A stretch of 64,000 nt of DNA from a virus: positions 85,353-149,352 of IMG/VR virus record IMGVR_UViG_3300033273_000392. The stretch is one strand, 5' to 3'. Below, piece after piece: positions 29,038 through 45,659 of the stretch. Position 1 is the first letter of the stretch. Each line of letters starts with the position of its first letter. Below the pieces are notes generated by a model. It saw nothing but the letters and a program-made list of their open reading frames with translations, had not been told where the DNA came from and ran no database searches. Position numbers and translations under genes: made by a program.

Positions 29038-29985
29038 TTAACTTTGAATTTCAAATCTGTCAGGCTCAAGATCTAACGTCTTTTTATCTAGATATTCACT
29101 AAAATCAGATAACTCCTTATCAGCATCATCAGATAACTCCCTTCCATAGAAGTCCTTAAATAGAACTCTATATGCCTGAACAGTTATATCAAATGGTACA
29201 CCTGGTTGTGAATTACTTTCTATAATGTAAACCTTTCCGTCTTTGTCCTCCATCACATCAAAGCAAATGTATGGGAGATCTTTGAATATCCTGCAATACT
29301 TGGATATGACTTCTTTAAAGGAATCAGGGACGTTCTCTGGATTTCTCTTTATATACTTAAACGACATCTTTTCCTCTCCCTTACCATCTCCACTTTTAGC
29401 TTTGTCGTTCATAGGCTTTCTTTCCATCCATGCAAATATCTCGCCTTTAAAGCAAACTAGACGATGCTCGGATTTCTTATCAATATATTGTGAATAAACT
29501 TCTAGCTTACTATGGTCTGCTGAATCAAATGACTCCTGATCCTTAAAAACTTGAATGCCTAGGCCAGAATGTCCGCTAGACGGTTTAGCTATCATTGGAA
29601 AACCTATCTTCTCGATAGCTTCATCTTTATCAAAAGAAGTTTTAGGAATATTTTCATCGTCACCGACAATCTCATGGAACTTCTTTTTTGACCCCGACAT
29701 TTCAATAAACTCTGGCTTATTGTACACTTTATCTGGATCGATAAGGCCATCATCAATAAGAGCCTTTACTACTTTGGAATTATACGTCAATACAGGAAAC
29801 TCTGGATTTATCTCCATGTCCTTGTAGTTATCTAAATTAACCTGTACAAAGAAGTTATCGCCAGCAAAGCCTTTATAGCTCCACCAGCGATGACCACTTT
29901 TAGGATCGATAGCAAGATAGATTTTATGTAAATCTCCTTGCCTCTTCTCAGAAACAAACTGTTCAAAAAGCTTGAATTTACCCAT
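29038..29985 (-). CDS. Tagged ATP-grasp (RimK-like) ligase; start reassigned to MGKFKLFEQFVSE
   Basis: FPMIAKP..GHSG.GI, SQYI, EHR, FDV, IIESNSQPG; GATATATA 4 nt upstream. Confidence 0.78.
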   Translation of the reverse strand: MGKFKLFEQFVSEKRQGDLHKIYLAIDPKSGHRWWSYKGFAGDNFFVQVNLDNYKDMEINPEFPVLTYNSKVVKALIDDGLIDPDKVYNKPEFIEMSGSKKKFHEIVGDDENIPKTSFDKDEAIEKIGFPMIAKPSSGHSGLGIQVFKDQESFDSADHSKLEVYSQYIDKKSEHRLVCFKGEIFAWMERKPMNDKAKSGDGKGEEKMSFKYIKRNPENVPDSFKEVISKYCRIFKDLPYICFDVMEDKDGKVYIIESNSQPGVPFDITVQAYRVLFKDFYGRELSDDADKELSDFSEYLDKKTLDLEPDRFEIQS

Positions 29986-30001
29986 AAGGTATATATCCAA
30001 G

Positions 30002-30439
30002 TTAGCTTCCAGGAAAAACTTCGATCGTTCTTTCTTCTTTAACTAAATCGCCCCATACTCCAGAGTAGCGAGTACCCTTTACAATATGATTGTCAATCCA
30101 ATGGTAATGACCGCCTCTTGGCTTATTCATAAGAAGACCATGATACTTAAAGCCATGTTTATCAAGCCACTCCTCGGTAATATCTCTCACATCCTCAGTA
30201 CGAGATGTAAAGAATGTGATTATATGTCCCTCGTCGTACCAGCGGTTTAGTGTTTCTACTGCATCTGGAAATGGAAGAACATGTTTCATTCTTTCAGGCT
30301 CCTCATTAGGTACATCATCAGTTACCGTTCCATCGATATCGATTAAATAGTTTTTAACACCTTCTGGTAATTGTGGACTTGCCAAATGTCCCTCGTCGTC
30401 AAACGCCATATTAAGCGCTAAGTTTATTTCTTTCTTCAT
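30002..30439 (-). CDS. HAD-family phosphatase
   Basis: IDIDGT, FTSR, KP, WIDN. Confidence 0.8.
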   Translation of the reverse strand: MKKEINLALNMAFDDEGHLASPQLPEGVKNYLIDIDGTVTDDVPNEEPERMKHVLPFPDAVETLNRWYDEGHIITFFTSRTEDVRDITEEWLDKHGFKYHGLLMNKPRGGHYHWIDNHIVKGTRYSGVWGDLVKEERTIEVFPGS

Positions 30440-30445
30440 GTTGAA

Positions 30446-31753
30446 TTAGTTTTGTTTTCTCATAAAAGACACGCAGATATATCTTTTTCCAGAGTATATC
30501 GGACGTGCGCCGTGAAGGTGTGTGACCATTCCAGGATGGAGAGTAGCCGTTCCTACTCTTTCTGGATTAGATAGTAAGTTGTATTTAGGGAACCATGTTC
30601 CGCCGCCATCAAATTCATCATTTAGTTTTACAACCATTGTTATATGGCTAAAGTCATGATGTAGTGACAAGTGAGACTGCCGGTCTGTCGTGTATCTTGC
30701 TAAAAAGTTTTCACTAAACATGGTTCTCCAACCCTTTCCTTCTAGTGTCCATAGATGAATACAGAGAGGGTATATAACCTCTTTAAGAACTCGACTATAA
30801 ATGTTTTGAAGGCCTATGTCTTGCAAAAGCACGTCGTTAGTTGGATAAAACTCATGTCTATCTACAGTCCAATTATCTTTAGCTTCTGCCAATGCAATTG
30901 CATCTTTACAGAATTTTTCAGTAAATAGCTGAAACTCAAACACGTTGTCACCTAGATCATCAATCATAAGATCGTATTCTCCTTTACGCAAAGTCGTATT
31001 TACATACTTTTGCATCCAAGAATCCCAATCAGAGTCATCTAGAATTTCAAAGTACTCATTGGTTTGTGGATTACCGTGCCCGATAGTAGAAGTTTGTGCA
31101 TTAGACGTTTGCTTTATCCAGTCTACTTTAGTAGCAAATGCCTTTATCTTCTTTTCAGGAAATAGTTCATTTACATCGTTTCTAGGATGCCGCAAAAAGG
31201 TAGCCGGTAAAAACTCATCAACTGGGATTATATTAGATCTAAGATTTACGTAATCTAAGAGTTTACTAGCACCGACCTTAGTAAGAACGTATGCATGTGA
31301 ACAATATGAGTTTAAAGGCATACATATATCTTCAGTAACTGAAAGCTCTGCTTCTTTGTTCAGCGCGTTTCTACCAAGATATATGAAATCCCATTTAGGT
31401 ACTTTATCTAAATTTAATTGGCTAATTGCCTTTACTCCTTTAAAGTCCTCTTCTAGAACTAAAACGACATCTTCATCTCCTTCCGCAATCTTTTTCCATA
31501 TTTCCATGTGACTTAACGTACATCCTATTTCACCTGGAAGTACTTGCCTATTCCACCAATCGTTATTAGAACCTTCAAGCTTCCATCCAGAATACGCTGA
31601 AAATGGCTCTATATTACTAGGTACATTATTTCCGTCAATTGCTGTAAAGATCTCGTACCCTGCTCTATTGCTTAGACCGAGTTTTCCCATTCGATCTATA
31701 ATATCTGCATTAGACTTTTTAAGATTAATTACATAAATCTTTTCTATATTCAT
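30446..31753 (-). CDS. GT25 (COLGALT-like) glycosyltransferase fused to PLOD-type 2OG-Fe(II) lysyl hydroxylase; start reassigned to MNIEKIYVINL
   Basis: GT25: YVINL, AIDG, GEIGC.LSH..IW, LEED, IYLGR, PVDEFLP; dioxygenase: PT.D, NF..RY, LSLHHD, GGG..F, LHPG..THLH, RY..VSF. Confidence 0.88.
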   Translation of the reverse strand: MNIEKIYVINLKKSNADIIDRMGKLGLSNRAGYEIFTAIDGNNVPSNIEPFSAYSGWKLEGSNNDWWNRQVLPGEIGCTLSHMEIWKKIAEGDEDVVLVLEEDFKGVKAISQLNLDKVPKWDFIYLGRNALNKEAELSVTEDICMPLNSYCSHAYVLTKVGASKLLDYVNLRSNIIPVDEFLPATFLRHPRNDVNELFPEKKIKAFATKVDWIKQTSNAQTSTIGHGNPQTNEYFEILDDSDWDSWMQKYVNTTLRKGEYDLMIDDLGDNVFEFQLFTEKFCKDAIALAEAKDNWTVDRHEFYPTNDVLLQDIGLQNIYSRVLKEVIYPLCIHLWTLEGKGWRTMFSENFLARYTTDRQSHLSLHHDFSHITMVVKLNDEFDGGGTWFPKYNLLSNPERVGTATLHPGMVTHLHGARPIYSGKRYICVSFMRKQN

Positions 31754-32775
31754 AGTGATTCTATAAGTTTTTTCCAATCGTACGACCTCGATGACCACGT
31801 TTGATTCTTGGACCAGCTGATACAATCCTTCCGTATCCTTTCTATTATGTTAGAACTGCTATGTTCTAATATAGATGTGGCTTCATTATATCTACTAACC
31901 TTATAATCTAATATGATTCCGGAATGTATTGTTTCATTTAAAGCCGCAATATTAGTAGTAATCGGTATCACGCCCGCGTATTGCATTTCTAAGGCAGTAA
32001 TACAATACGTTTCTTCATATCCTGTTAAATACATCCAATAGTCTGACTTAAGCATTGCTGCGTGCAAATCTTCTTGAGAAACACTTCCGTGAATAGTAAT
32101 TCCATCTTGTCTTACTAAATGAGATAATCTATCCATATCGCCAGAAGCATAGTCAGGATAGTATACGTTTAACGTGGCTTCTGGTTTTACTTCTTTTATT
32201 CTACTCCAGTTTTCTAATAAGTGTGATAGCCCCCTACTCGGCGCAGAACTCCATATAAAACTATCCTTTATCTTTCTAGGTCTTCCATGAAACGAGCTAA
32301 GGTCTATCCCATTCCCTATGACTTCTATATTATCAACACCATACTTATTTGACCATTGATTTTTATGCCATTCGGTAAGGCATACTATTTTAGAAAGCTT
32401 TTGATTATTAAGAAGCGTTTTACTTTGGGGAATCTTCTTTCCGTTCCACCAAGCGTGATAGTCTGTATTGTGTGCCCAAAAGATCTTCTTAGCGCCATAT
32501 TTCTCGAACTCTAATAAGAAGTGGATATAACTAGCACCTATAATTACATCAAAGTGATTAAAGTATTGCTTGTGGAGTTTATGCGTGGGAATCCATTCTA
32601 CTAAACCAAACTTTCCAGGAAGAACATTCCCAGATACGAATACTTCCCAACCAAACCTGCTTAGCTCTTCAGAAAGCTTTATGCATGCTAGTTCTGTACC
32701 TCCAATACCGGAAGTCTTAATAGTATCTGGATTAAATGGCTTCTTCTGATAGCCTACATAAATTAGTATGCGCAT
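31750..32775 (-). CDS. GT4/GT-B glycosyltransferase
   Basis: GIGGTE, IGNGID, SSAPSRGL, ETYCITALE.Q.AG. Confidence 0.85.
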   Translation of the reverse strand: MRILIYVGYQKKPFNPDTIKTSGIGGTELACIKLSEELSRFGWEVFVSGNVLPGKFGLVEWIPTHKLHKQYFNHFDVIIGASYIHFLLEFEKYGAKKIFWAHNTDYHAWWNGKKIPQSKTLLNNQKLSKIVCLTEWHKNQWSNKYGVDNIEVIGNGIDLSSFHGRPRKIKDSFIWSSAPSRGLSHLLENWSRIKEVKPEATLNVYYPDYASGDMDRLSHLVRQDGITIHGSVSQEDLHAAMLKSDYWMYLTGYEETYCITALEMQYAGVIPITTNIAALNETIHSGIILDYKVSRYNEATSILEHSSSNIIERIRKDCISWSKNQTWSSRSYDWKKLIESL

Positions 32776-32802
32776 ATAAACCCGTTTAGGATTTATATAT
32801 TA

Positions 32803-33012
32803 TCATTCCTGAGACGAGAGATGTTCAACAATAAGACATGGTTTACAATAACGACATGATACTTCGGTGCCTATTTCTTCATCATCGGAAGGAAGCTCGT
32901 GTGTTTTCCATTCAAAATCAAAAACACCGTTATCGTCATATACGTTATACGCGCCGGCTTCACATTTAGAAGTACCGCTTGACATTGTTTGTTGGCAATT
33001 AGTGCAATCCAT
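32803..33012 (-). CDS. Small Cys-rich protein
   Basis: CxxC...CxxCxxC; coupled to upstream gene. Confidence 0.5.
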   Translation of the reverse strand: MDCTNCQQTMSSGTSKCEAGAYNVYDDNGVFDFEWKTHELPSDDEEIGTEVSCRYCKPCLIVEHLSSQE

Positions 33013-33929
33013 TATTCTTCTCCTGTTACTGTTATACCATCCAGGGCAAAGTCAGCTCTAAAATATTTTACATCCGACATGACAAAATGAAGATAAACTG
33101 AGGATTGACCTGCAAGTGAGTTTAAGTCTACTTCTGCCTTTCTCCAAAGAGCTGAGTTTGATGTTTGTTGACCTCCTGAAATTCTATTTGATGTAGCTGT
33201 CGTAGATCCCGTATCATTCGTCCATCTAGTTATATTCAATCCGCCAGTAGAAACGTTTTGTAAACCTGAGTTAGTTACGACCTCTGATATTCTACTAGAG
33301 TCGGTTGCTGAAGTTGTAGCGGCAATTGCAAAGTCATGTGATGTTGAATCTGAAGACGCAGTGGCTAGAGAGTATATATGAAACCAAAAATTTAACTTAA
33401 GTGTATTATTACTTAACGCGTTACTAAAATCAAGCTCTGGTGAAATTAGGGCATGTGCTTGCCCACTACTAGAATAACCGCCACCGGCTGCAGCAGATGA
33501 CGATTCATAATAGATGTATCGATTCGTGTTACTTTGTGTTCCTGTAGTAGCACTTACGCCGCCTGATAAACCACCGTTAGGACCAGTCCCTGAAGATCCT
33601 GTTGCATTATAGTCAAATCTCCATCCATACGTACCAACTAAGGTAGAACTAGATGGGTTTACATTAAATGTTTGTGAGTACGCTCCTGGCAAGCCAAATA
33701 CCACATGCGAGTCTATACCAACAGTCCATCCAGTAGGCAGCATTTGTGAAGTATATCCACCGGTCGTCCAATCTTGAGTAAGATAAGTTGTAGCCGTGCC
33801 ACTGCTACCTGAGCCTCCACCAGACGATCCCCTAGCAAAACCTAAAAGTTTATTTATGCTAGACCATCCACGCCCAGTTCTTTTTGAGATGTTACTTACG
33901 TCTACTCCTGTCTGTTTAGATATTGCCAT
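33012..33929 (-). CDS. Virion fibre/adhesin-like protein with MAM-like beta-sandwich
   Basis: S/T/G-rich; TGP, YIYYESS, LISP, FWFH, WRKAEVDL, ALDGI. Confidence 0.55.
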   Translation of the reverse strand: MAISKQTGVDVSNISKRTGRGWSSINKLLGFARGSSGGGSGSSGTATTYLTQDWTTGGYTSQMLPTGWTVGIDSHVVFGLPGAYSQTFNVNPSSSTLVGTYGWRFDYNATGSSGTGPNGGLSGGVSATTGTQSNTNRYIYYESSSAAAGGGYSSSGQAHALISPELDFSNALSNNTLKLNFWFHIYSLATASSDSTSHDFAIAATTSATDSSRISEVVTNSGLQNVSTGGLNITRWTNDTGSTTATSNRISGGQQTSNSALWRKAEVDLNSLAGQSSVYLHFVMSDVKYFRADFALDGITVTGEE

Positions 33930-33940
33930 GTGTAGTTAAT

Positions 33941-36900
33941 TTAGGTTAATTCTACCCAATCGTCAGACGGTCTAAAATATAGAAGACTTTCTGAAGGCTT
34001 AATTAAATATCCGACAATTCTAACTATTTCTCCGCTTCCATTAGGAGCTGTTAATGTAAATTGCCCGGCAGTTGTTGAAAGATAAACTATATCGCCAGGC
34101 TGTCCTCCAGTAAGGCTGTTTCCTGCTTTTACAACTCCATCTAATACCATTTCTTGAGAAGATGTAGCAGTAGTTGCAACCGCTAATAATCCACGAGCAT
34201 TAGTCTCACTGTCTGCCCGTGCCGTACCCCAAGTTGCGTTTCCGCCCCCACTCTTAAATTGGTATAATTCCCCAGCAGTTACCGTAAAGTTAGCTGAAAA
34301 GTTATGTGCCGTTCTAGTTCCTGGATAAAATTGACCTGATGAAACAGTTCCTGTTTTATGAGTTTTAACCTTAATATCGTTAGCGTAAAAGTCAGTATTT
34401 ACTGTCATCCCAAAAGAGTTAACAGTAATATCGGATTCAACAGTAGCACTACTTCCACCATTAAAAGTTAATAATCCATCTAGGGTTGATCCTGTGAGGT
34501 TTAAAAGACCCTTTTCTCCTTTTTGACCCTTTGATCCAGAGGCACCAGCGGCACCTTGAGCTCCAGCGGCACCTTGAGCTCCAGCGGCACCTTGTGCTCC
34601 AGCTGCACCTTGTGCTCCAGCTGCACCTTGAGCACCTTGAGCACCTTGTGGTCCAGCAGGACCTTGAGCACCTTGAGGTCCAACTGCACCCTGGTTACCT
34701 TGAGCACCCTGTGGTCCAACGTTACCTTGAGCACCTTGAGGTCCAACTGCACCCTGGTTACCTTGAGCACCTTGTGGTCCAACGTTACCTTGAGCACCTT
34801 GAGGTCCAACTGCACCCTGGTTACCTTGAGCACCTTGAGGTCCAACTGCACCCTGGTTACCTTGAGCACCTTGTGGTCCAACGTTACCTTGAGCACCTTG
34901 AGGTCCAACTGCACCCTGGTTACCTTGAGCACCTTGTGGTCCAACGTTACCTTGAGCACCTTGAGGTCCAACTGCACCCTGGTTACCTTGAGCACCCTGT
35001 GGTCCAACGTTACCTTGAGCACCTTGAGGTCCAACTGCACCCTGGTTACCTTGAGCACCTTGTGGTCCAACGGCACCTTGGTTACCTTGAGCACCCTGTG
35101 GACCTAAGTCACCTTTAACACCTTGAGCACCTTGAGGTCCGACTGCCCCTTGGTTACCTTGAGCACCTTGAGGGCCTACATCACCTTTAATACCTTGACC
35201 ACCTTGTGGACCTAAGTCACCTTTAACACCTTGAGCACCTTGAGGTCCGACTGCCCCTTGGTTACCTTGAGCACCTTGTGGCCCAACTGCCCCTTGGTTA
35301 CCTTGAGCACCTTGAGGGCCTACATCACCTTTAATACCTTGACCACCTTGTGGTCCAACATTTCCTTGAGCACCTTGTGGCCCAACTGCCCCTTGGTTAC
35401 CTTGAGCACCTTGAGGACCTAGATCACCTTTAATACCTTGATCTCCTTTTTGACCTTGGTCTCCTTTTTGACCTTGTGGACCCTGTGGACCTACATCACC
35501 TTTAATACCTTGGTCTCCTTTTTGCCCCTTGTCTCCTTTTGATCCAGTCGGGCCTTGAGCTCCTATAAGCTCATCTTCTATCATAAGTAGAAGCGCTGGG
35601 GTTCCATTAGAAGAAGATACCATACCGTTAGAGTTAACGAATGAGCCCTCGCCTTGAAGAAGGATATCTCCGCCATCAGATCTTGTGAAGTTAAGATAGC
35701 TTATATTCTTTGTAGTAACATTTACTTCTAAGCCTAATGCCTCTGTAAATGTAGCTCCGGTGTAATCTGCAAATGAAGAATCACCGGTAATTACTACATC
35801 CTTACCTGCGCCTGAAGTTAACATTAATCCAGGATATTGGCTTTTAAAGTTAGCTTGATCCCATACAAACGTGCTAGCTACAATGTCTACGTTTCCTGCT
35901 GTAAATAGTTGATTTAGATCTTGCGCTATTATATTTGCAGAAAAAGTGTTATATTGAACCCCGCCGCCTGCATTGTATATTGTATCAGTATTAAAACCTG
36001 GCGAGTATGTTATTGAGTTAGTACCGTCTGAAATGCCAACGCTAGGAAGCTGTGCGGCGGCCTGTCCAACCTGTTTAAGAATAATCATTACATCTCCATT
36101 CACTGGTTGAGTAACCTTTCCTGAATAGTTTTCTGCATTAGGTAGATATATTGAGGCAGTAACATGGTGGCTGCTAGTAGTTAAGTTAACCTCATTCCTT
36201 ATTTCTGCAGAAGTTTTAGTTACACCAGCTCCAAGGGGAGCAAATATGTTAACATCATTAATAACTAAAGAGTCGCCTTCAACCATTCCTACGTTAACAG
36301 TGTCAGCCTGTATAACTGTTGGAATTGCATCTTTGAAATGTAAGAACATTTCATTGTTTCCAAGAGATGGATTTGTTGTTAGCTCACCGTGTGATGAGGT
36401 TGATGCGTAATAAACATCTCCAATAGAACCTGTAAGTCTTTCAGGAGCCGTAAAGTCATCTATAATTTGATTGAACGGCTTTATGTAGGCTACCGTATCA
36501 TTATACGTTTTGCTAACTACATAGCCTAACTTATATGCATTTGCTCCTGGCGAATTTATTGGTATTAGATCCCCACTAGAATCTATAGTTACAACATCTC
36601 CTACTTCAATAGTAGTCTGTGGTACATCAAACTTAAGTCTATAACTTTCGCTCTTCTCCTTTACCTGGAATCTAGCTTGTATCTTATCAATTGAGCCTAC
36701 GTTAGCCTTAAAAAAGTAGTTGCTATTACCTGCAATTATCGCCTCTCCAGAATCAGATACCTCAAAGGCACAGATTCTATCACCAGCAGAAAGAACATTT
36801 GTTCTATATGTCTTGTGCACATATGCGTCGATATCTTCAACTACGAATGTTATTTCATTCGCATTAGTATCAATCGATATTATCGACGTTATCTTTAGAC

Positions 36901-37156
36901 AGATATTTCCAGTAGCGTCTGCAATCCAATCTCCGGTTTTAATATCAAGAACAGAGTACGTATATGCTTCTCTAGTAGCTGCGGACCCAGTGGTAACCGG
37001 CTTAAATCTAACTGTCATTCTAAACGATATAGGCACATTAAGCCCACTAGGGCCTAGGCCAGTATCGTCATCGTGTTCGTATCTCGAGACTATTAATATG
37101 GAGCCTATCTCTCCTTGTAAAAATAATACAGGTGTATCTGGATTGTATATTGCCAT
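33941..37156 (-). CDS. Collagen-like fibre protein
   Basis: Over 100 uninterrupted G-X-Y triplets; fibre-type C-terminal domain (VYLSTTAG...RIVGY...YFRP..WVEL). Confidence 0.85.
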   Translation of the reverse strand: MAIYNPDTPVLFLQGEIGSILIVSRYEHDDDTGLGPSGLNVPISFRMTVRFKPVTTGSAATREAYTYSVLDIKTGDWIADATGNICLKITSIISIDTNANEITFVVEDIDAYVHKTYRTNVLSAGDRICAFEVSDSGEAIIAGNSNYFFKANVGSIDKIQARFQVKEKSESYRLKFDVPQTTIEVGDVVTIDSSGDLIPINSPGANAYKLGYVVSKTYNDTVAYIKPFNQIIDDFTAPERLTGSIGDVYYASTSSHGELTTNPSLGNNEMFLHFKDAIPTVIQADTVNVGMVEGDSLVINDVNIFAPLGAGVTKTSAEIRNEVNLTTSSHHVTASIYLPNAENYSGKVTQPVNGDVMIILKQVGQAAAQLPSVGISDGTNSITYSPGFNTDTIYNAGGGVQYNTFSANIIAQDLNQLFTAGNVDIVASTFVWDQANFKSQYPGLMLTSGAGKDVVITGDSSFADYTGATFTEALGLEVNVTTKNISYLNFTRSDGGDILLQGEGSFVNSNGMVSSSNGTPALLLMIEDELIGAQGPTGSKGDKGQKGDQGIKGDVGPQGPQGQKGDQGQKGDQGIKGDLGPQGAQGNQGAVGPQGAQGNVGPQGGQGIKGDVGPQGAQGNQGAVGPQGAQGNQGAVGPQGAQGVKGDLGPQGGQGIKGDVGPQGAQGNQGAVGPQGAQGVKGDLGPQGAQGNQGAVGPQGAQGNQGAVGPQGAQGNVGPQGAQGNQGAVGPQGAQGNVGPQGAQGNQGAVGPQGAQGNVGPQGAQGNQGAVGPQGAQGNQGAVGPQGAQGNVGPQGAQGNQGAVGPQGAQGNVGPQGAQGNQGAVGPQGAQGPAGPQGAQGAQGAAGAQGAAGAQGAAGAQGAAGAQGAAGASGSKGQKGEKGLLNLTGSTLDGLLTFNGGSSATVESDITVNSFGMTVNTDFYANDIKVKTHKTGTVSSGQFYPGTRTAHNFSANFTVTAGELYQFKSGGGNATWGTARADSETNARGLLAVATTATSSQEMVLDGVVKAGNSLTGGQPGDIVYLSTTAGQFTLTAPNGSGEIVRIVGYLIKPSESLLYFRPSDDWVELT
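34508..35565 (-). repeat. Collagen-coding tandem repeats ([12 protein letters not shown] / GPQGAQGNV)
   Basis: Near-perfect repeats built from 9-bp multiples such as CCTTGAGCACCTTGAGGTCCAACTGCACCCTGGTTA. Confidence 0.92.
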
Positions 37157-37171
37157 CTATGTTAGTTGTCA

Positions 37172-40100
37172 TTAGAACGTGAATATGAGATACACGTGGG
37201 GGTCGACTCTATTTTGAAGAGGTGCTGAGTAGCTGTTTCCATACTTTACAACACTTTGTTCAACTGGAATTGTCATGTCATATGAAGAGAAGTCAGCACT
37301 AAAGTTAGTTCCAGACCATTGTCCAGCAAGACCAGATCCACCTTCACTTGTAGACTGGTAGGTAAACGCTGTTTTAACAGTGTTGTATGTTATTTGCGCA
37401 ATATCGTCATTATCAAAATGAGTTACCTTATATGTCATAGTCTTTGGATCTAACGCATATGCAAATATAGAAATAGGTGGTCTAGATCTGTTAAATGATA
37501 CGGTTACGTAGTGGCCAGAATTACCAGTACCTACTGTTTCAGAAACGACAGTTGCTGTACCGGCTCCAGGGTTTACATATCCAGTAGCTGCAACAAAGGT
37601 GGAGTTACCGCTTATAAGTGCCTCGTTCTGATCATACTCAAGTCTTAGTAGGAACTGTTCAGACCCACCAACTCCAGTTGGGCCTAGTTCACCTTTTTGT
37701 CCCTTGACGCCTTGAGTACCCTGAGTACCTTGGTCACCCTGCGGACCGGTTACACCGATCTCACCTTTAGTTCCAGCTGCACCCTGAGATCCAACTGGTC
37801 CTTGTGGTCCTACTTCACCTTTATCACCGGTTGCTCCAACTTGACCTTGTAGCCCAACTGGACCTTGTGGTCCGATTGCACCCTGCGGTCCAACTACCGT
37901 AGAATCTGCTCCTTTATCACCCTTGTCTCCCTTGTCACCCTGTGGACCTTCAATAGAAATCGCACCTAGTGTTGTAATAACATAAGAGTAATCAGCGGTT
38001 CCTTCAGTATAAAACTTGATAGCATGGGACTGATTGTCAGGGTTATTTGCGTAGATCCTTACAATCATTCTGTCACCTGTATTCAAAGTGGTGTGTGGGA
38101 ACTCAAAATCAAGATCCATTTCAACTGGAGTGGTGTTATTAGTGTCCCATCCAATAGACTCTACTTCAGTAGTACCTAAACTATTAATTGTGCTTAAAGT
38201 TGAATCTGCGCGTAAAAGTTCTACATAAATCTGAACATTATCTGCCTCATTAAGCTTAGTAAAGTGCAAGTGGAATCTCTGAATTCCGGCAGGTATAAAG
38301 TCATATTGATCTAGCTCTCCTGCATCTGTAATAAATTGTGCAACAAGAACCTGACTTGAATTATTATTAATTGTTACATTTGTAATTTGCTGTGACGCCT
38401 GCGTTTGTGCATCATCTACTTCATAATACCCTGTTGGGCTTTGAGCAACTGACGTATTTAAGTAGTAGATTCTACCTGTAGTTATACCGTCTTTACCAGT
38501 AGCTCCTTGTGGTCCAACATCTCCCTTTTCACCTTTATCTCCAGTAATACCCTGTAGTCCTTGTAAACCGACAGAACCCTGTGGGCCTTGTGGACCTGGA
38601 ATTGTAGAAGGCTCTCCTTTATCGCCAACAAGTCCTTGTAAGCCGATAGGACCTTGTGGACCTGGAATTGTAGATGGCGCGCCAGTAGCTCCAACATTAC
38701 CCTGTGCACCTTGAGGTCCAACATCTCCCTTATCTCCTTTAGGACCTGGAACTGATGAATCAAATCCTTTATTACCCTTTTGTCCAACTTGACCCTGTGC
38801 ACCAACTTCACCTTTTTGACCCTTTTGTCCAACTAGACCTGCACCTCCCTGGGCTCCCACTTCACCTTTTTGACCCTGTGCTCCATGTGAACCAGTAGGA
38901 CCTTGTGGTCCAAGTGGACCTTGTGGGCCTATATCTCCCTTAATACCCTGAGCACCTTGTAAACCAACAGAACCCTGTGGTCCAGTTGGACCCTGCGGTC
39001 CAGTTGGTCCGCCTGATCCTCTTAAAGAAGATGTTGTATAATCGCTTATAGTTATAGTTCCACCTTCAGTAGAATGATCGGCCGGCGGGTCAACAGTAGA
39101 ATCGCAGTAGTAGTATAGTGTTGCAGGTGCGCTTAACGGTACTACAAATTCGATATAACCTCCAATACCGCCATATGCTCCGTTTAAGGTTACTCCATCA
39201 GTATATTCAGTTCCTCCATTATGTGTACCCCCATCAGTAGTTGAAAACTTAAAGAAGTGATCGCGCATCGATGAATGATTTACATCAAATCTATACACTT
39301 GACCTCTAAAAAATTCTAAAGACGTATTTTCACCATTACCAACATAAAAAACAGAATCCCCTGAGCCGTTTGTACCTGTAGTGACCTTAAATCTACCTGA
39401 GTATGTGGGATCTCCAGTGCTACCTTGTGGTCCGGTCTCACCGGTACCGCCAGTTTCACCCGGCTCACCCTTCTGACCTTTACTCCCTCCAGGGCCCTGA
39501 GGACCTGTATCGCCAGTAACACTTAATCCTATATCACCCTTCTCTCCCTTTTCTCCAGTAGCCCCACTAGGACCTTGCGCTCCTTCTTGTCCAGTATCTC
39601 CCTTTAATCCTTGTAGACCTACGCCAATATCACCCTTCTCTCCGGTAGGACCCTGAGGACCTGCTACTGTAGAGTCGGCGCCCGTTGGACCTTGAGCGCC
39701 TTGGGCACCTGTTTCACCCTTCTCTCCTCTTTCTCCTTTTAGTCCCTGGGGCCCTTGTGGTCCTTCATCCCCTTTAAGCCCAGCTGAAGTATATGCGTCT
39801 AAAGAAAGAGATATGTTTTGATTTAGTGAAAACTTAGTAAGAACATTATCAGAAGAAGAGTGAGAGCGATATGTTACTGTTATGTCGTAAACAACCGGAG
39901 TTTGACTGCCCGACATTACGTGATTAGTCATTTGCCATGAAACTATATCGTATATGTAGTATTCATACGGTCTATCAACATCAGTAACTACCATGTAAAC
40001 TCCTGAGCTCTGGCTTCCAGTCTGGAAGAGCTCGGTTAACACGTAATCCAAATACTCGTTTGTATATCCTCTAACGTCTTTAAAGTGAACCTGTATAGAA

Positions 40101-40651
40101 GTTACATTCCTAGGATCTGAAGATTCAAAACTTATTCTTCCAGGTACTGGGAAATCCCCATTAGTAGCACCAACTGCATATAAAGATGCTGGGGTTATGA
40201 ATCTATCGTCTACTAATCCAAAAGATTTAGAAGATGCGCTAGGGGTATACAAAGAAACCACTGCTATAATTAGCTTTGGCATTGTCGTAGTTATAGTGCC
40301 GACAATATATCTTGATCTGACAAGTTCTACTTCTGCATGAACTGATCCTATTCTAAGATTCGAAGTGTCATTTTCGTCTAAAATAAACTGTATTAGTCCT
40401 TCTTCGCCATTTGCAGAGTTACCTATGAAAAGACTATCATTTCCAGGAGTACTAGCTTTAGAATATGTTTTAAAGTGAATGCCTTGGTCATCGTATAGGC
40501 GAACTATAACGTTATCGTAGTTAGATAAATCTACTTGATCGTTAATTACGTCACGGTACATTACTATACCGAAAGTAGTCTGTGATCCCTGGCTAATATT
40601 CTGTACCTGAGATATGTATGCAAAGAAGTTTTCTTTTATAACGTATGGCAT
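37172..40651 (-). CDS. Collagen-like fibre protein with three G-X-Y regions and interspersed globular domains
   Basis: GPQG/KGDKG runs; cupredoxin-like insert (RGQVYRFD...H.F...APATLYYYC); GATATATA at 40679-40686. Confidence 0.85.
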
Positions 40652-40690
40652 TCCCCAAATTGTCTTTTTAGTTCTGTTTATATATCAATA

Positions 40691-41791: not shown

Positions 41792-42469
41792 TTATGACTT
41801 TTTAATAATTTCGTCAATTATGCCATATTTAACGGCTTCTTCTGCGTTTAGCCAAAAATCTCGACTAGCATCTTTCTTTACAGTCTCTGGATCTTTATCA
41901 CAGTAAGATCCGAGAAGAACAAATAGTTCATGGTTTACTTTTTGCCATTCTTGCCAATCAATCTCCGCATCTTGAATATTACCATGAAATCCTCCAGAGG
42001 ACTGGTGCAGCATTGTTGTAGAGTGGCGAAGAGACATTCTTTTTCCTTTAGTTCCAGCGCCCAACAAGACAGAACCCATAGAAGCCGCCATACCTGTGTT
42101 AATAGTTCTAATATCGCAGTTGACGTATTCCATAACATCAACCATAGAAAGCCCTGACTTTACGGATCCACCTGGTGAATCAATATGCATTGTGATATCT
42201 TCTCCGCTTGAGCTGTTCAAAAACATAAGTTGAGCCTGAACTACGGTAGACATAGCGTCATTTACAGGACCAGCAACCCAAAGCAATCTATCCATCATCA
42301 ATCTTGAAAAGATATCAATTTGAGTTGCTCTTAGTTCTCTTTCTTCCAAAACATACGGAGTCATATTAGATTCAATATGCTTAGAATAAGCGTCGATAGT
42401 ATTACCTCCTATATTAAATTCAGATTTAGCGTATCTGTTAAACTCTTTGTCTTTTGAGTAGTAATTCAT
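41792..42469 (-). CDS. clpP: ATP-dependent Clp protease proteolytic subunit
   Basis: DIFSRLMMDR, IDSPGG, AASMG (Ser), MLHQ (His), RDFW, YGIID. Confidence 0.95.
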   Translation of the reverse strand: MNYYSKDKEFNRYAKSEFNIGGNTIDAYSKHIESNMTPYVLEERELRATQIDIFSRLMMDRLLWVAGPVNDAMSTVVQAQLMFLNSSSGEDITMHIDSPGGSVKSGLSMVDVMEYVNCDIRTINTGMAASMGSVLLGAGTKGKRMSLRHSTTMLHQSSGGFHGNIQDAEIDWQEWQKVNHELFVLLGSYCDKDPETVKKDASRDFWLNAEEAVKYGIIDEIIKKS

Positions 42470-43652: not shown

Positions 43653-45659
43653 TCACTTTATAGTAAGTTTATCCTCTTTGGACAACTTAGTAATAGTGTA
43701 TGTAACTCCTTTCTCTACTTCTGAATTCAGTATAGCATCTGCAACAAGGTCCTCTACATATTTTTGTATTGCTCTCTTTAGGGGGCGAGCGCCATACGCT
43801 GGGTCATATCCTTGTCCTGCAACAAACTTCTTTGCAGCTTTATTGAATTTGAATACATATCCTTCTTCTGCAATTCTATCAATAAACTCATCTAGCTCAA
43901 TATTTACGATTTCAAGGATGTGCTCTTCTTGCAGCTGATCAAATAGGATGATATCATCTAGTCTGTTTAAGAACTCAGGGCTAAATTTGTTCTTTAGTTC
44001 CTTCTTAATAATAGCATCAGTTTTAGATCTTCTTTCATCATCGCTAGTCTTTCCTTGGAAACCAATTCCAGTTCCAAAATCGGATAGTCTACGCGCGCCT
44101 ACGTTTGAGGTCATAATGATGACGGTGTTGGTAAAGTCTATGGTACGCCCGTTTGAATCTGTTAATCTACCTTCATCAAGAACTTGTAGCAAGATGTTAA
44201 ACACGTCGCTGTGCGCCTTCTCGATTTCATCGAACAAGACAACTGAGTATGGACGACGTCTTACTGATTCTGTCAGCTGACCACCGTCTTCGTGACCTAC
44301 ATAGCCTGGAGGTGAACCAATCAAGCGGCTAACGTTAAACTTTTCCTGATACTCGCTCATATCAATTCGAATCAAAGAGTCGCTATCGCCAAACAAGTAC
44401 TCAGCAAGTGCCTTCACTGTTTGTGTCTTACCGACGCCAGTTGGACCTAGGAACATAAATGATCCGGTAGGTTTTCTATGAGAAGACACCCCAGTTCTAG
44501 ACCTTTTAATGATTTTAGACAAAGAATCTACTGCATCGTCTTGACCTATAATGTACTTCTTAAGCTCCGGAGCCATGTTACGAATCATCTTGATATCATC
44601 AGATCCCAATCGTTTTACAGGAATTCCTGTTTGCATAGAAATAGTTTCTGCAATTTCTAATTCGGTCACCTTACGCTTTTTTTGCTTAAGAGACTGTTCC
44701 CATTTTTGGATTTCAGTAGCTATCTTAGTTTCTATTGACAATTGCTTATCTCTTAATTGAGCTGCCTCTTCGTAACTTTGCTCTGAAACTGCATTCTTTT
44801 TCTTGGCCTTAATGGCTTCTGCCTCTTTTTCAAGAGTTTTTAGGTGTGCGGGCACTTTAACCTCCATCAAATGCGTTCTAGCACCAGCCTCGTCCATAAG
44901 GTCAATGGCCTTATCTGGAAGTTCTCTTTGCTTAATGTACCTGTCGCTCATTTTAACACACGCTTCAATGGCTTCATCAGAATATGCAACACTATGATGG
45001 TCTTCGTACTTATCTTTGATGCGGTGTAAGATTTCAATCGTATCCTCTTGTGACGGCGGATCAATAAAGATTTCCTGGAATCTTCTAGTCAATGCTCCAT
45101 CATCTTCAATGTTCTCACGATACTCGTCTAGCGTTGTTGCACCAATACATTGAACCTGTCCTCTAGCTAAAGCCGGCTTCAAGATATTAGAAGCATCCAA
45201 TGCACCGCTGACGCCTCCGGCTCCAACGATCGTATGAATCTCATCAATGAATACAATTACATTCTTAGAATTCTTTAGTTCTTCTACGATCATCTTCATT
45301 CTCTCCTCAAATTCACCACGGTACTTAGTACCCGCAACGATCGTTGTCATGTTAAGAGAAATGATTCTTTTGTTCAAAAGAACCCTAGCCACCTTCTTAG
45401 ACACTATGCGTTGTGCAATTGCTTCGACAATTGCAGTCTTACCAACACCTGGATCCCCTAGAATAATAGGGTTATTCTTTTTACGGCGCGCAAGAATCTG
45501 GCAGATACGATATATTTCTGTATCTCTACCAATGATAGGATCCAGCTTGTTATCTTCTGCTAATTGAGTTAGGTCTTCACCAAACTCATCTAGAAATGGA
45601 GTAGCATTCTTCTTGTTGCTTCTCTTTTCGTTTTCATACCCGTCGGCGGCTAGTGACAT
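43653..45659 (-). CDS. clpC: ClpC-type AAA+ unfoldase lacking the N-terminal Clp repeat domain
   Basis: GDPGVGKT, IDEIH, UVR M-domain YEEAAQLRD, GPTGVGKT, GIGF ClpP-docking loop, YGARPL. Confidence 0.9.
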   Translation of the reverse strand: MSLAADGYENEKRSNKKNATPFLDEFGEDLTQLAEDNKLDPIIGRDTEIYRICQILARRKKNNPIILGDPGVGKTAIVEAIAQRIVSKKVARVLLNKRIISLNMTTIVAGTKYRGEFEERMKMIVEELKNSKNVIVFIDEIHTIVGAGGVSGALDASNILKPALARGQVQCIGATTLDEYRENIEDDGALTRRFQEIFIDPPSQEDTIEILHRIKDKYEDHHSVAYSDEAIEACVKMSDRYIKQRELPDKAIDLMDEAGARTHLMEVKVPAHLKTLEKEAEAIKAKKKNAVSEQSYEEAAQLRDKQLSIETKIATEIQKWEQSLKQKKRKVTELEIAETISMQTGIPVKRLGSDDIKMIRNMAPELKKYIIGQDDAVDSLSKIIKRSRTGVSSHRKPTGSFMFLGPTGVGKTQTVKALAEYLFGDSDSLIRIDMSEYQEKFNVSRLIGSPPGYVGHEDGGQLTESVRRRPYSVVLFDEIEKAHSDVFNILLQVLDEGRLTDSNGRTIDFTNTVIIMTSNVGARRLSDFGTGIGFQGKTSDDERRSKTDAIIKKELKNKFSPEFLNRLDDIILFDQLQEEHILEIVNIELDEFIDRIAEEGYVFKFNKAAKKFVAGQGYDPAYGARPLKRAIQKYVEDLVADAILNSEVEKGVTYTITKLSKEDKLTIK

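Follow-up and report, generated by a model that had tools for sequence, protein, structure and literature searches.

A predicted cassette for hydroxylating and glycosylating collagen lysines, encoded beside two collagen-like genes in a tailed phage

Introduction

To our knowledge, hydroxylysine and its O-linked glycans are a hallmark of animal collagens, and mimivirus offers the sole viral case. The work on mimivirus collagen modification (PMC9546862, PMC5802723, PMC9614988, PMC12279948) is the nearest precedent for the locus described here, a group of co-oriented genes at 30002–40686 of a 64,000-nucleotide stretch (‘the window’) that forms part of the 149-kb virus record IMGVR_UViG_3300033273_000392. 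One of these genes encodes a protein in which a GT25-family glycosyltransferase domain is fused to a dioxygenase domain of the lysyl hydroxylase (LH) type. The mimivirus protein L230, which a reading of the window made from its sequence alone (hereafter the sequence-only reading) had rightly named as a viral precedent, has the same architecture: an N-terminal GLT25D1-like glycosyltransferase (GT) and a C-terminal PLOD-type LH in one polypeptide (PMC9614988, PMC5802723). Mimivirus, too, has genes for collagen-like proteins in which lysine occupies the Y position of the G-X-Y triplets. We consider it probable that the phage cassette modifies lysines of the phage's own collagen-like fibres, with the LH domain forming hydroxylysine at X-Lys-Gly, the GT25 domain adding a hexose and a GT4-family glycosyltransferase extending the glycan. 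Of the checks that the sequence-only reading had proposed, all those carried out here speak for it. The whole case is built on sequence, predicted fold and gene context. These show the identities of the domains, their intact catalytic residues, the order and coupling of the genes and the linkage among relatives; from them we infer what the enzymes act on, in what sequence they act, which sugars they use and what the phage gains.

Judged by its sequence, the phage fusion is a compact L230, with the same two catalytic modules and without the middle region of ~340 residues: L230 has 895 residues, whereas the fusion has 435 and a short linker. The two also differ in setting, as the host of mimivirus is an amoeba and that of the phage a bacterium, and the phage locus, unlike L230, comes with a coupled GT4 gene and with candidate fibre substrates of more than 1000 residues. 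Mimivirus has, in addition, two stand-alone transferases assigned to the collagen hydroxylysine-glycan pathway, R699 (GGT) and R655 (GT25-like) (PMC9546862); R699 is of the PLOD-GT type, a domain absent from the window, and R655, which is uncharacterised (PMC9546862), matches the GT25 domain of the fusion weakly (4e-4).

The human system of LH3/PLOD3 and GLT25D1/COLGALT1 (6fxk, 8zgc, 9evj) draws on the same LH and GT25 GalT-C families, with metal-binding residues that are kept in the phage fusion, and resembles the proposed phage pathway in its X-Lys-Gly motif and in using a third transferase to make a disaccharide (PMC11897130). In animals, however, the LH shares its polypeptide with a GT-A glucosyltransferase and an accessory domain, and COLGALT1 is a separate two-domain protein. 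The phage protein instead joins GT25 straight to LH and has no GalT-N domain, a GT-B enzyme (GT4) is the candidate for the second transfer, and the reactions would take place in the cytoplasm and not in the endoplasmic reticulum.

Prokaryotic collagen-like proteins are, according to reviews, generally without such modification (PMC8968730). Iyer et al. (2010; PMC2938197) predicted from gene neighbourhoods that 2-oxoglutarate (2OG) dioxygenases of prokaryotes act on collagen-like or tail-collar proteins encoded alongside them, but those enzymes belong to other families and are paired with sulfotransferases, and are not PLOD-type LHs with glycosyltransferases (PMC2938197). The sequence-only reading knew of no characterised bacteriophage equivalent, and our search of the full-text literature, with subscription journals outside its scope, likewise found no paper on a bacteriophage PLOD-type LH or on hydroxylysine glycosylation in bacteriophages; the GenBank products of the phage homologues are ‘hypothetical protein’ or ‘2OG-Fe(II) oxygenase’. 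What is probably new here, as a predicted function, is that tailed phages encode an L230-like enzyme for hydroxylating and glycosylating collagen lysines, in the window pared down to GT25 and LH and accompanied by a coupled GT4.

Results and discussion

The GT25–lysyl hydroxylase fusion

The features that carry the argument are these:

30446–31753, minus strand: GT25-dioxygenase fusion, 435 residues; PF01755 plus a dioxygenase domain
31109–31753, minus strand: GT25 domain of the fusion, residues 1–215; COLGALT1 GalT-C / L230 N-terminal type; PF01755 E = 8e-17
30449–31048, minus strand: predicted LH domain of the fusion, residues 236–435; PLOD/L230-type 2OG-Fe(II)
31750–32775, minus strand: GT4 (GT-B) glycosyltransferase; PF13439 and PF00534
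37172–40651, minus strand: putative collagen-like fibre protein A (ColA), 1159 residues; Pfam Collagen E = 5e-45
33941–37156, minus strand: putative collagen-like fibre protein B (ColB), 1071 residues; Pfam Collagen E = 2e-51

The fusion starts at an ATG at 31753 that is common to its homologues. In a PDB sequence search its residues 244–431 match the LH domain of L230 (1e-22; 6ax6) and human LH3 (6e-21; 6fxk), whereas prolyl 4-hydroxylases (P4Hs) reach 2e-3 at best against the LH domain. An AlphaFold2 model of the fusion, built from a 26-sequence alignment with a predicted local distance difference test score (pLDDT) of 80, was compared with known structures by Foldseek: the L230 LH domain superposes with a template-modelling (TM) score of 0.82 at 30% identity and P4Hs at ~0.5–0.6, while by E-value LH3 is matched at 3e-22, COLGALT1 (9evj) at 1e-16 and prolyl hydroxylases at 5e-7 or weaker. 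L230 binds iron through H825, D827 and H877 and 2OG through Y814 and R887 (PMC5802723), and the phage protein has all five of these catalytic residues, namely the triad H365, D367 and H414 together with Y354 and R424 at the 2OG C5 carboxylate, each of them invariant in 26 homologues. V410 (V, I or L in homologues) aligns with L230 Leu873, a hydrophobic residue of the tail-to-tail dimer. The sequence-only reading had likened this half of the protein to the catalytic domain of animal procollagen lysyl hydroxylases, and all the motifs that it quoted are found in the translation of the fusion. We agree that, by sequence and modelled fold, the C-terminal domain is a PLOD/L230-type LH in its predicted activity, nearer to lysyl than to prolyl hydroxylases, and it does not cluster with prolyl or nucleotide hydroxylases.

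The N-terminal half, which had been likened to the GT25 domain of COLGALT1, bears out that comparison as well. Residues 4–181 score 62.1 bits against PF01755 (cut-off 24), and residues 2–209 match the C-terminal GT-A domain of COLGALT1 (GalT-C) at 4e-18, with COLGALT1 values ranging from 1e-17 to 4e-18 over searches. COLGALT1 GalT-C binds Mn through E435-x-D437 and UDP through R354, G377, S415 and T571 (PMC11897130). E101-E-D103 of the fusion aligns with the E-x-D motif, E101 and D103 being invariant in the 26 homologues, and G41 and S81, which correspond to the Gly and Ser of the COLGALT1 UDP/Mn site, are kept in at least 90% of them. The match spans residues 312–525 of the COLGALT1 chain and is GalT-C-like only, and since GalT-N is absent from the fusion we call it GT25-like and not a COLGALT1 orthologue. 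Some 20 residues link the GT25 and LH domains, with no middle region resembling the GT_PLOD or accessory domains. The sugar is not to be named galactose: the N-terminal GT of L230 is GLT25D1-like, yet transfers glucose (PMC9614988), and the sugar is therefore not predictable from homology.

It is conceivable that the pathway stops at hydroxylation, in which case the GT25 half would have no catalytic role and act as a scaffold or bind the substrate, and GT4 would belong to another pathway. Among the 26 homologues the GT25 half is far less conserved than the LH half, and the UDP-binding, phosphate-contacting Arg354 of COLGALT1 has no conserved counterpart, the position being Ile18 in the fusion and the nearby R21 common, not invariant; furthermore, mimivirus particles were reported to contain hydroxylysine, not its glucosylation (PMC9614988). 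We nevertheless hold this alternative to be quite improbable, given the conservation of E101, D103, S81 and G41, the confident model of the GT25 domain (pLDDT ~90 over residues 60–210), and the fusion and coupling of GT4 (below), which make little sense unless there is a glycan for it to lengthen.

GT4 and domain architectures

In most related loci the gene immediately before the fusion is GT4, and in the window its stop codon overlaps the start of the fusion as ATGA. It matches Glyco_transf_4 at 39.3 bits (cut-off 28.5) and Glycos_transf_1 at 29.2 bits (cut-off 26.4). When the LH domain was searched against 1.84 billion cluster representatives, 2042 matches were found, 80 of them below 1e-30, and the 151 nearest clusters, classified by domain hidden Markov models with Pfam spot checks, fell into the following architectures:

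LH alone (some of them fragments): 80 clusters
GT4-GT25-LH: 23 clusters
GT25-LH, as in the window: 21 clusters
GT25-GT_PLOD-LH: 16 clusters
GT4-LH: 4 clusters
GT_PLOD-LH: 4 clusters

In a tree of the LH domain, the window protein falls in a clade of 12 (SH-aLRT 98) that includes two GT4-GT25-LH proteins and one GT25-GT_PLOD-LH protein; animal PLODs, which rank below the 150 listed representatives, are not part of this tree, and the relations among phage, giant-virus and animal enzymes are not readable from it. The window GT4 aligns end to end with the N-terminal GT4 domain of the GT4-GT25-LH proteins (33–35% identity; E = 2e-43 and 3e-54). Because GT4 is fused to the enzyme in close kin, overlaps it by ATGA here and keeps a fixed adjacency to it elsewhere, it likely works in the same pathway as the fusion. 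It also stands where sister enzymes have a PLOD-type glucosyltransferase domain, which suggests, by analogy, that it adds a second sugar, and the earlier proposal that GT4 possibly extends the glycan gains support from the occurrence of GT4-GT25-LH as a single polypeptide among close kin.

Genes of this kind in marine myophages are usually annotated in terms of lipopolysaccharide (LPS) or capsule, and the GT25 and GT4 could on that basis be enzymes that remodel the host surface, with the dioxygenase as an unrelated passenger domain. PF01755 is named ‘LPS biosynthesis protein’ in Pfam, JGI homologues are labelled ‘GR25 family glycosyltransferase involved in LPS biosynthesis’, the glycosyltransferases of the pelagimyophage hypervariable region have been ascribed to O-chain modification (PMC7029224), and the HAD phosphatase encoded next to the fusion resembles capsule-biosynthesis phosphatases. 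We find this explanation very unlikely all the same, as the top GT25 match is COLGALT1 and no bacterial LPS enzyme, hundreds of homologues have the GT25 in one chain with an intact LH domain, and L230 itself was mis-annotated as an LPS enzyme before its role in collagen modification was shown (PMC9546862).

Collagen-like proteins as candidate substrates

ColA contains ten G-X-Y runs amounting to 126 triplets, with globular segments between them, and ColB a single unbroken run of 118 triplets at residues 532–885 with lysine triplets at both ends. Lysine is found once at X and 27 times at Y in ColA, and 0 and 14 times, respectively, in ColB, while proline is found 32 times at X and 4 times at Y in ColA, and 28 and 0 times in ColB. 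Over all 244 triplets, lysine thus stands at Y in 41 cases and at X in one, and proline at X in 60 and at Y in 4, just as the sequence-only reading had described (lysine mainly at Y, proline mainly at X). X-Lys-Gly is the substrate motif of lysyl hydroxylases. Gly-Asp or Gly-Glu follows the Y-position lysine in 32 of the 41 cases.

Elsewhere in the 149-kb record, the sole other ORF (open reading frame) with a G-X-Y run is one of 632 residues with a single run of 15 triplets (G000:C1:55622-57517, minus strand), ~28–30 kb before the window. ORFs of similar size with weak Collagen matches occur at distant places in related contigs.

Linkage of the enzymes to collagen genes

A sister clade with the architecture GT25-GT_PLOD-LH, ~30% identical to the window protein, provides what we regard as the strongest argument for the fibres as substrate. 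Its members include enzymes of the cultured cyanomyoviruses S-8S55, S-CAM9 and S-PRM1 and of Roseobacter phage CRP-6 (gp58), all of which carry the middle GT_PLOD domain, unlike the window fusion. In S-8S55 and S-CAM9 the enzyme comes after an annotated tail fibre protein whose collagen run has 22–24 lysines at Y and none at X, in S-PRM1 it also comes after an annotated tail fibre with a similarly lysine-rich run, and in CRP-6 it comes after the collagen tail fibre gp60, with 26 lysines at Y and none at X. The S-CAM9 tail fibre is AOV60630 and its enzyme AOV60634. Across 59 further loci, many of them near-duplicates though with more than 12 different spacings, a same-strand collagen ORF lies upstream in 33 of the 34 that have at least 3 kb of upstream sequence (within 3 kb in 28), and a collagen ORF lies downstream in 0 of 39; the 33 upstream ORFs each have 14–36 lysines at Y and 0 at X. 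This asymmetry is seen both in myoviruses and in a small phage with a tape-measure-type tail.

In two cyanomyovirus loci (L048:10821-12001 and L049:10758-11923), genes for two small PF13640 (P4H-type) 2OG oxygenases separate the collagen tail fibre gene from that of the GT25-GT_PLOD-LH enzyme, and their products might hydroxylate prolines of that fibre.

Within the window's own clade the linkage is looser. A word-indexed search found 360 homologues of the fusion at E ≤1e-3, the best 120 of them near full length at 53–97% identity, and 46 loci were recovered from IMG/VR. Most related loci keep GT4, the fusion, the HAD gene and three genes downstream of them in synteny. The upstream fibre genes of the relatives have no detectable non-collagen sequence in common with those of the window and keep their collagen character. 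Where 3 kb or more of upstream sequence was available, 16 of 26 loci have a same-strand collagen ORF upstream, and a short collagen ORF lies downstream in 6 of 30. On five contigs of 130–212 kb, strong Pfam Collagen matches are grouped upstream of the fusion, one of these contigs (G002) having matches elsewhere as well.

A collagen-collagen-GT4-fusion-HAD cassette, 59% identical, lies on a 24-kb contig (L053; PAUJ01000013.1) binned in a Flavobacteriaceae metagenome-assembled genome (MAG), which is either a weak hint at Flavobacteriaceae as the host group or a binning artefact. A 59%-identical homologue from protein cluster P0018 is recorded on a contig of eukaryote scale (104 Mb), which could be contamination or an integrated copy. 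No relative of protein P0131 was found in IMG/VR, and for P0130 two distant loci only were found there.

A number of observations, besides the missing counterpart of Arg354, weigh against the proposed modification of the fibres. Ten of the 26 window-clade loci have no collagen ORF within 10 kb upstream, and four loci of that clade (L012, L014, L022 and L029) have just a lysine-poor one. There is no collagen gene near several phage groups, namely L032-35 (stand-alone LH forms of 210 residues), L036-L041 (GT25 and LH as adjacent separate genes behind a family B DNA polymerase, in an array of ~200-residue ORFs), L031 and L047. Collagen genes are likewise missing from the neighbourhood of stand-alone LH homologues, 47–51% identical, on the chromosomes of Thiothrix, Thiolinea, Leucothrix and an Aquificaceae MAG (L062, L059, L055, L054 and L056; 208–255 residues; Thiothrix fructosivorans among the hosts), and although two of these five genomes encode collagen-like proteins elsewhere, this says little when a control run gave 3 of 14 genomes. 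As to the substrates themselves, Lys-Gly-Asp/Glu ion pairs stabilise triple helices, and because such pairing would select the same placement of lysine at Y, that placement is consistent with hydroxylation without being diagnostic of it. The only pointer to ColA and ColB being virion fibres comes from PHROG tail-fibre families, which match ColA through the repeats.

It is on such grounds that the LH might be thought to act on a non-collagen target, whether another residue, a different protein of the virion or one of the host, for instance a translation factor, its adjacency to fibre genes reflecting no more than residence in a hypervariable fibre region; other P4H-type bacterial 2OG oxygenases do modify EF-Tu (PDB 5v7y title). 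We judge this unlikely. The upstream excess over downstream collagen ORFs, with its lysine-rich Y positions, is found in a clade just 30% identical to the window protein, the linkage is repeated in an unrelated siphovirus, the nearest characterised relatives all act on collagen lysines, and the LH domain is recurrently fused to hydroxylysine-glycosylating GT types, in ~70 of the 151 clusters. The expected co-occurrence with collagen genes stands for several phage lineages, and fails for some homologues, the stand-alone bacterial forms included.

A model for the pathway

If the phage does modify its own fibres, as we favour, the two collagen-repeat proteins would be made in the host cytoplasm from a common promoter-like motif, and the Fe(II)/2OG-dependent LH domain would act before the chains trimerise or while they do so, turning the Y-position lysine of G-X-K into hydroxylysine. 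GT25, in the same polypeptide, would then transfer a hexose from a UDP-sugar onto the new hydroxyl, as the GLT25D1-like domain of L230 does, and the translationally coupled GT4 would most likely add a further sugar as a non-homologous stand-in for the PLOD-type glucosyltransferase domain. The phage may benefit through fibre stability, protease resistance or receptor binding.

Boundaries and remaining genes of the cassette

The other features of the cassette are as follows:

40679–40686, minus strand: promoter-like motif GATATATA, 27 nt before the ColA gene, at the start of the cassette
33012–33929, minus strand: MAM-like protein, 305 residues; homologues with PF00629
32803–33012, minus strand: Cys-rich peptide, 69 residues with 7 Cys in the translation
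32791–32804, minus strand: motif variant GATAATATATAAAT in the 27-nt gap before GT4, read from the sequence as a putative promoter
30002–30439, minus strand: small HAD phosphatase, 145 residues; capsule-biosynthesis / PNKP-phosphatase type, with weak Pfam HAD matches
29990–29997, minus strand: the following copy of GATATATA, just behind the HAD gene

The gene set and co-orientation proposed by the sequence-only reading hold throughout: every long ORF in 30002–40686 is on the minus strand, and the genes are separated by gaps of 6–27 nt or else overlap, as do the MAM-like stop and the Cys-rich peptide start (TAATG). The ‘late promoter’ placed at 40679 needs some rewording. GATATATA is a genuine recurrent motif, with 13 copies in the window (sites include 1947, 7388, 16910, 21418, 27981, 29990 and 40679), all on the coding (minus) strand, against ~5.2 expected and with 1 of 100 shuffles reaching 13, and most copies lie just before start codons, including those of capsid-tagged cargo genes. 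It is a non-canonical motif, not the T4 late promoter consensus TATAAATA, which is not found at 40679 and occurs 6 times in the window against 7.6 expected, and it seems to be the form that a late promoter takes in this phage, the timing class being presumptive. With copies of GATATATA before ColA and after the HAD gene, the boundaries 30002–40686 fit a transcription unit, and the copy at 29990–29997 likely marks the start of the next one, which begins with an ATP-grasp gene. The terminator-like matches in the cassette score weakly and all fall inside genes, and for this reason we claim no internal terminator.

The product of 33012–33929 had been called a ‘MAM-like adhesin’. Pfam gave no match for the protein itself, even at E 1, and the MAM label comes from ~15 of its 57 homologues, which have precomputed PF00629 matches. 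A tblastn search with it against the related loci found nothing, and the 69-residue Cys-rich peptide had no family match in Pfam; by these comparisons both are lineage-specific, and the MAM-like protein lies outside the conserved core. The HAD gene is present as described (PDB matches 1xpj at 4e-7 and the capsule biosynthesis protein 9iqw at 2e-4), and where kept in related loci its product is 53–78% identical (mostly 71–78%). Its link to the pathway, by contrast, is not demonstrated, the gene being missing from three related cassettes (L009, L010 and L013), and its membership is uncertain.

The ATP-grasp gene after HAD (29038–30000, minus strand; RimK / D-Ala-D-Ala ligase-like) has its own GATATATA upstream, is syntenic in most related loci and might encode another peptide-modifying enzyme. 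Upstream of the cassette lie a head-maturation-protease-like gene (41792–42469, minus strand) and a gene for a 668-residue Lon-like ATP-dependent protease (43653–45659, minus strand; phrog_4871, E = 4e-243). No near-identical DNA was matched in the phage collection.

Implications

A broader picture, which we offer tentatively and regard as possible though doubtful, is that marine tailed phages carry a complete, cytoplasm-adapted hydroxylysine-glycan pathway whose modules can be exchanged (GT25-GT_PLOD-LH in one form, GT25-LH in the other, the latter with GT4 either fused or on its own), that its glycan tunes host recognition or fibre stability, and that the phage and bacterial pool is the reservoir of the L230 and metazoan PLOD/COLGALT modules.

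The proposal that the phage modifies its own fibres is directly testable, as the cultured phages S-CAM9, S-PRM1, S-8S55 and CRP-6 have sister enzymes beside annotated tail fibres. If it is true, phages would join animals and giant viruses, until now the only demonstrated users of this chemistry, and the compact enzymes, which would be expected to work in the bacterial cytoplasm, may serve to make modified recombinant collagen. The glycosyltransferases that marine myophages encode in their hypervariable regions, commonly interpreted as modifiers of host LPS (PMC7029224), would need to be re-read as fibre-maturation enzymes, and abundant ocean phages would gain a new layer of receptor-binding diversity.

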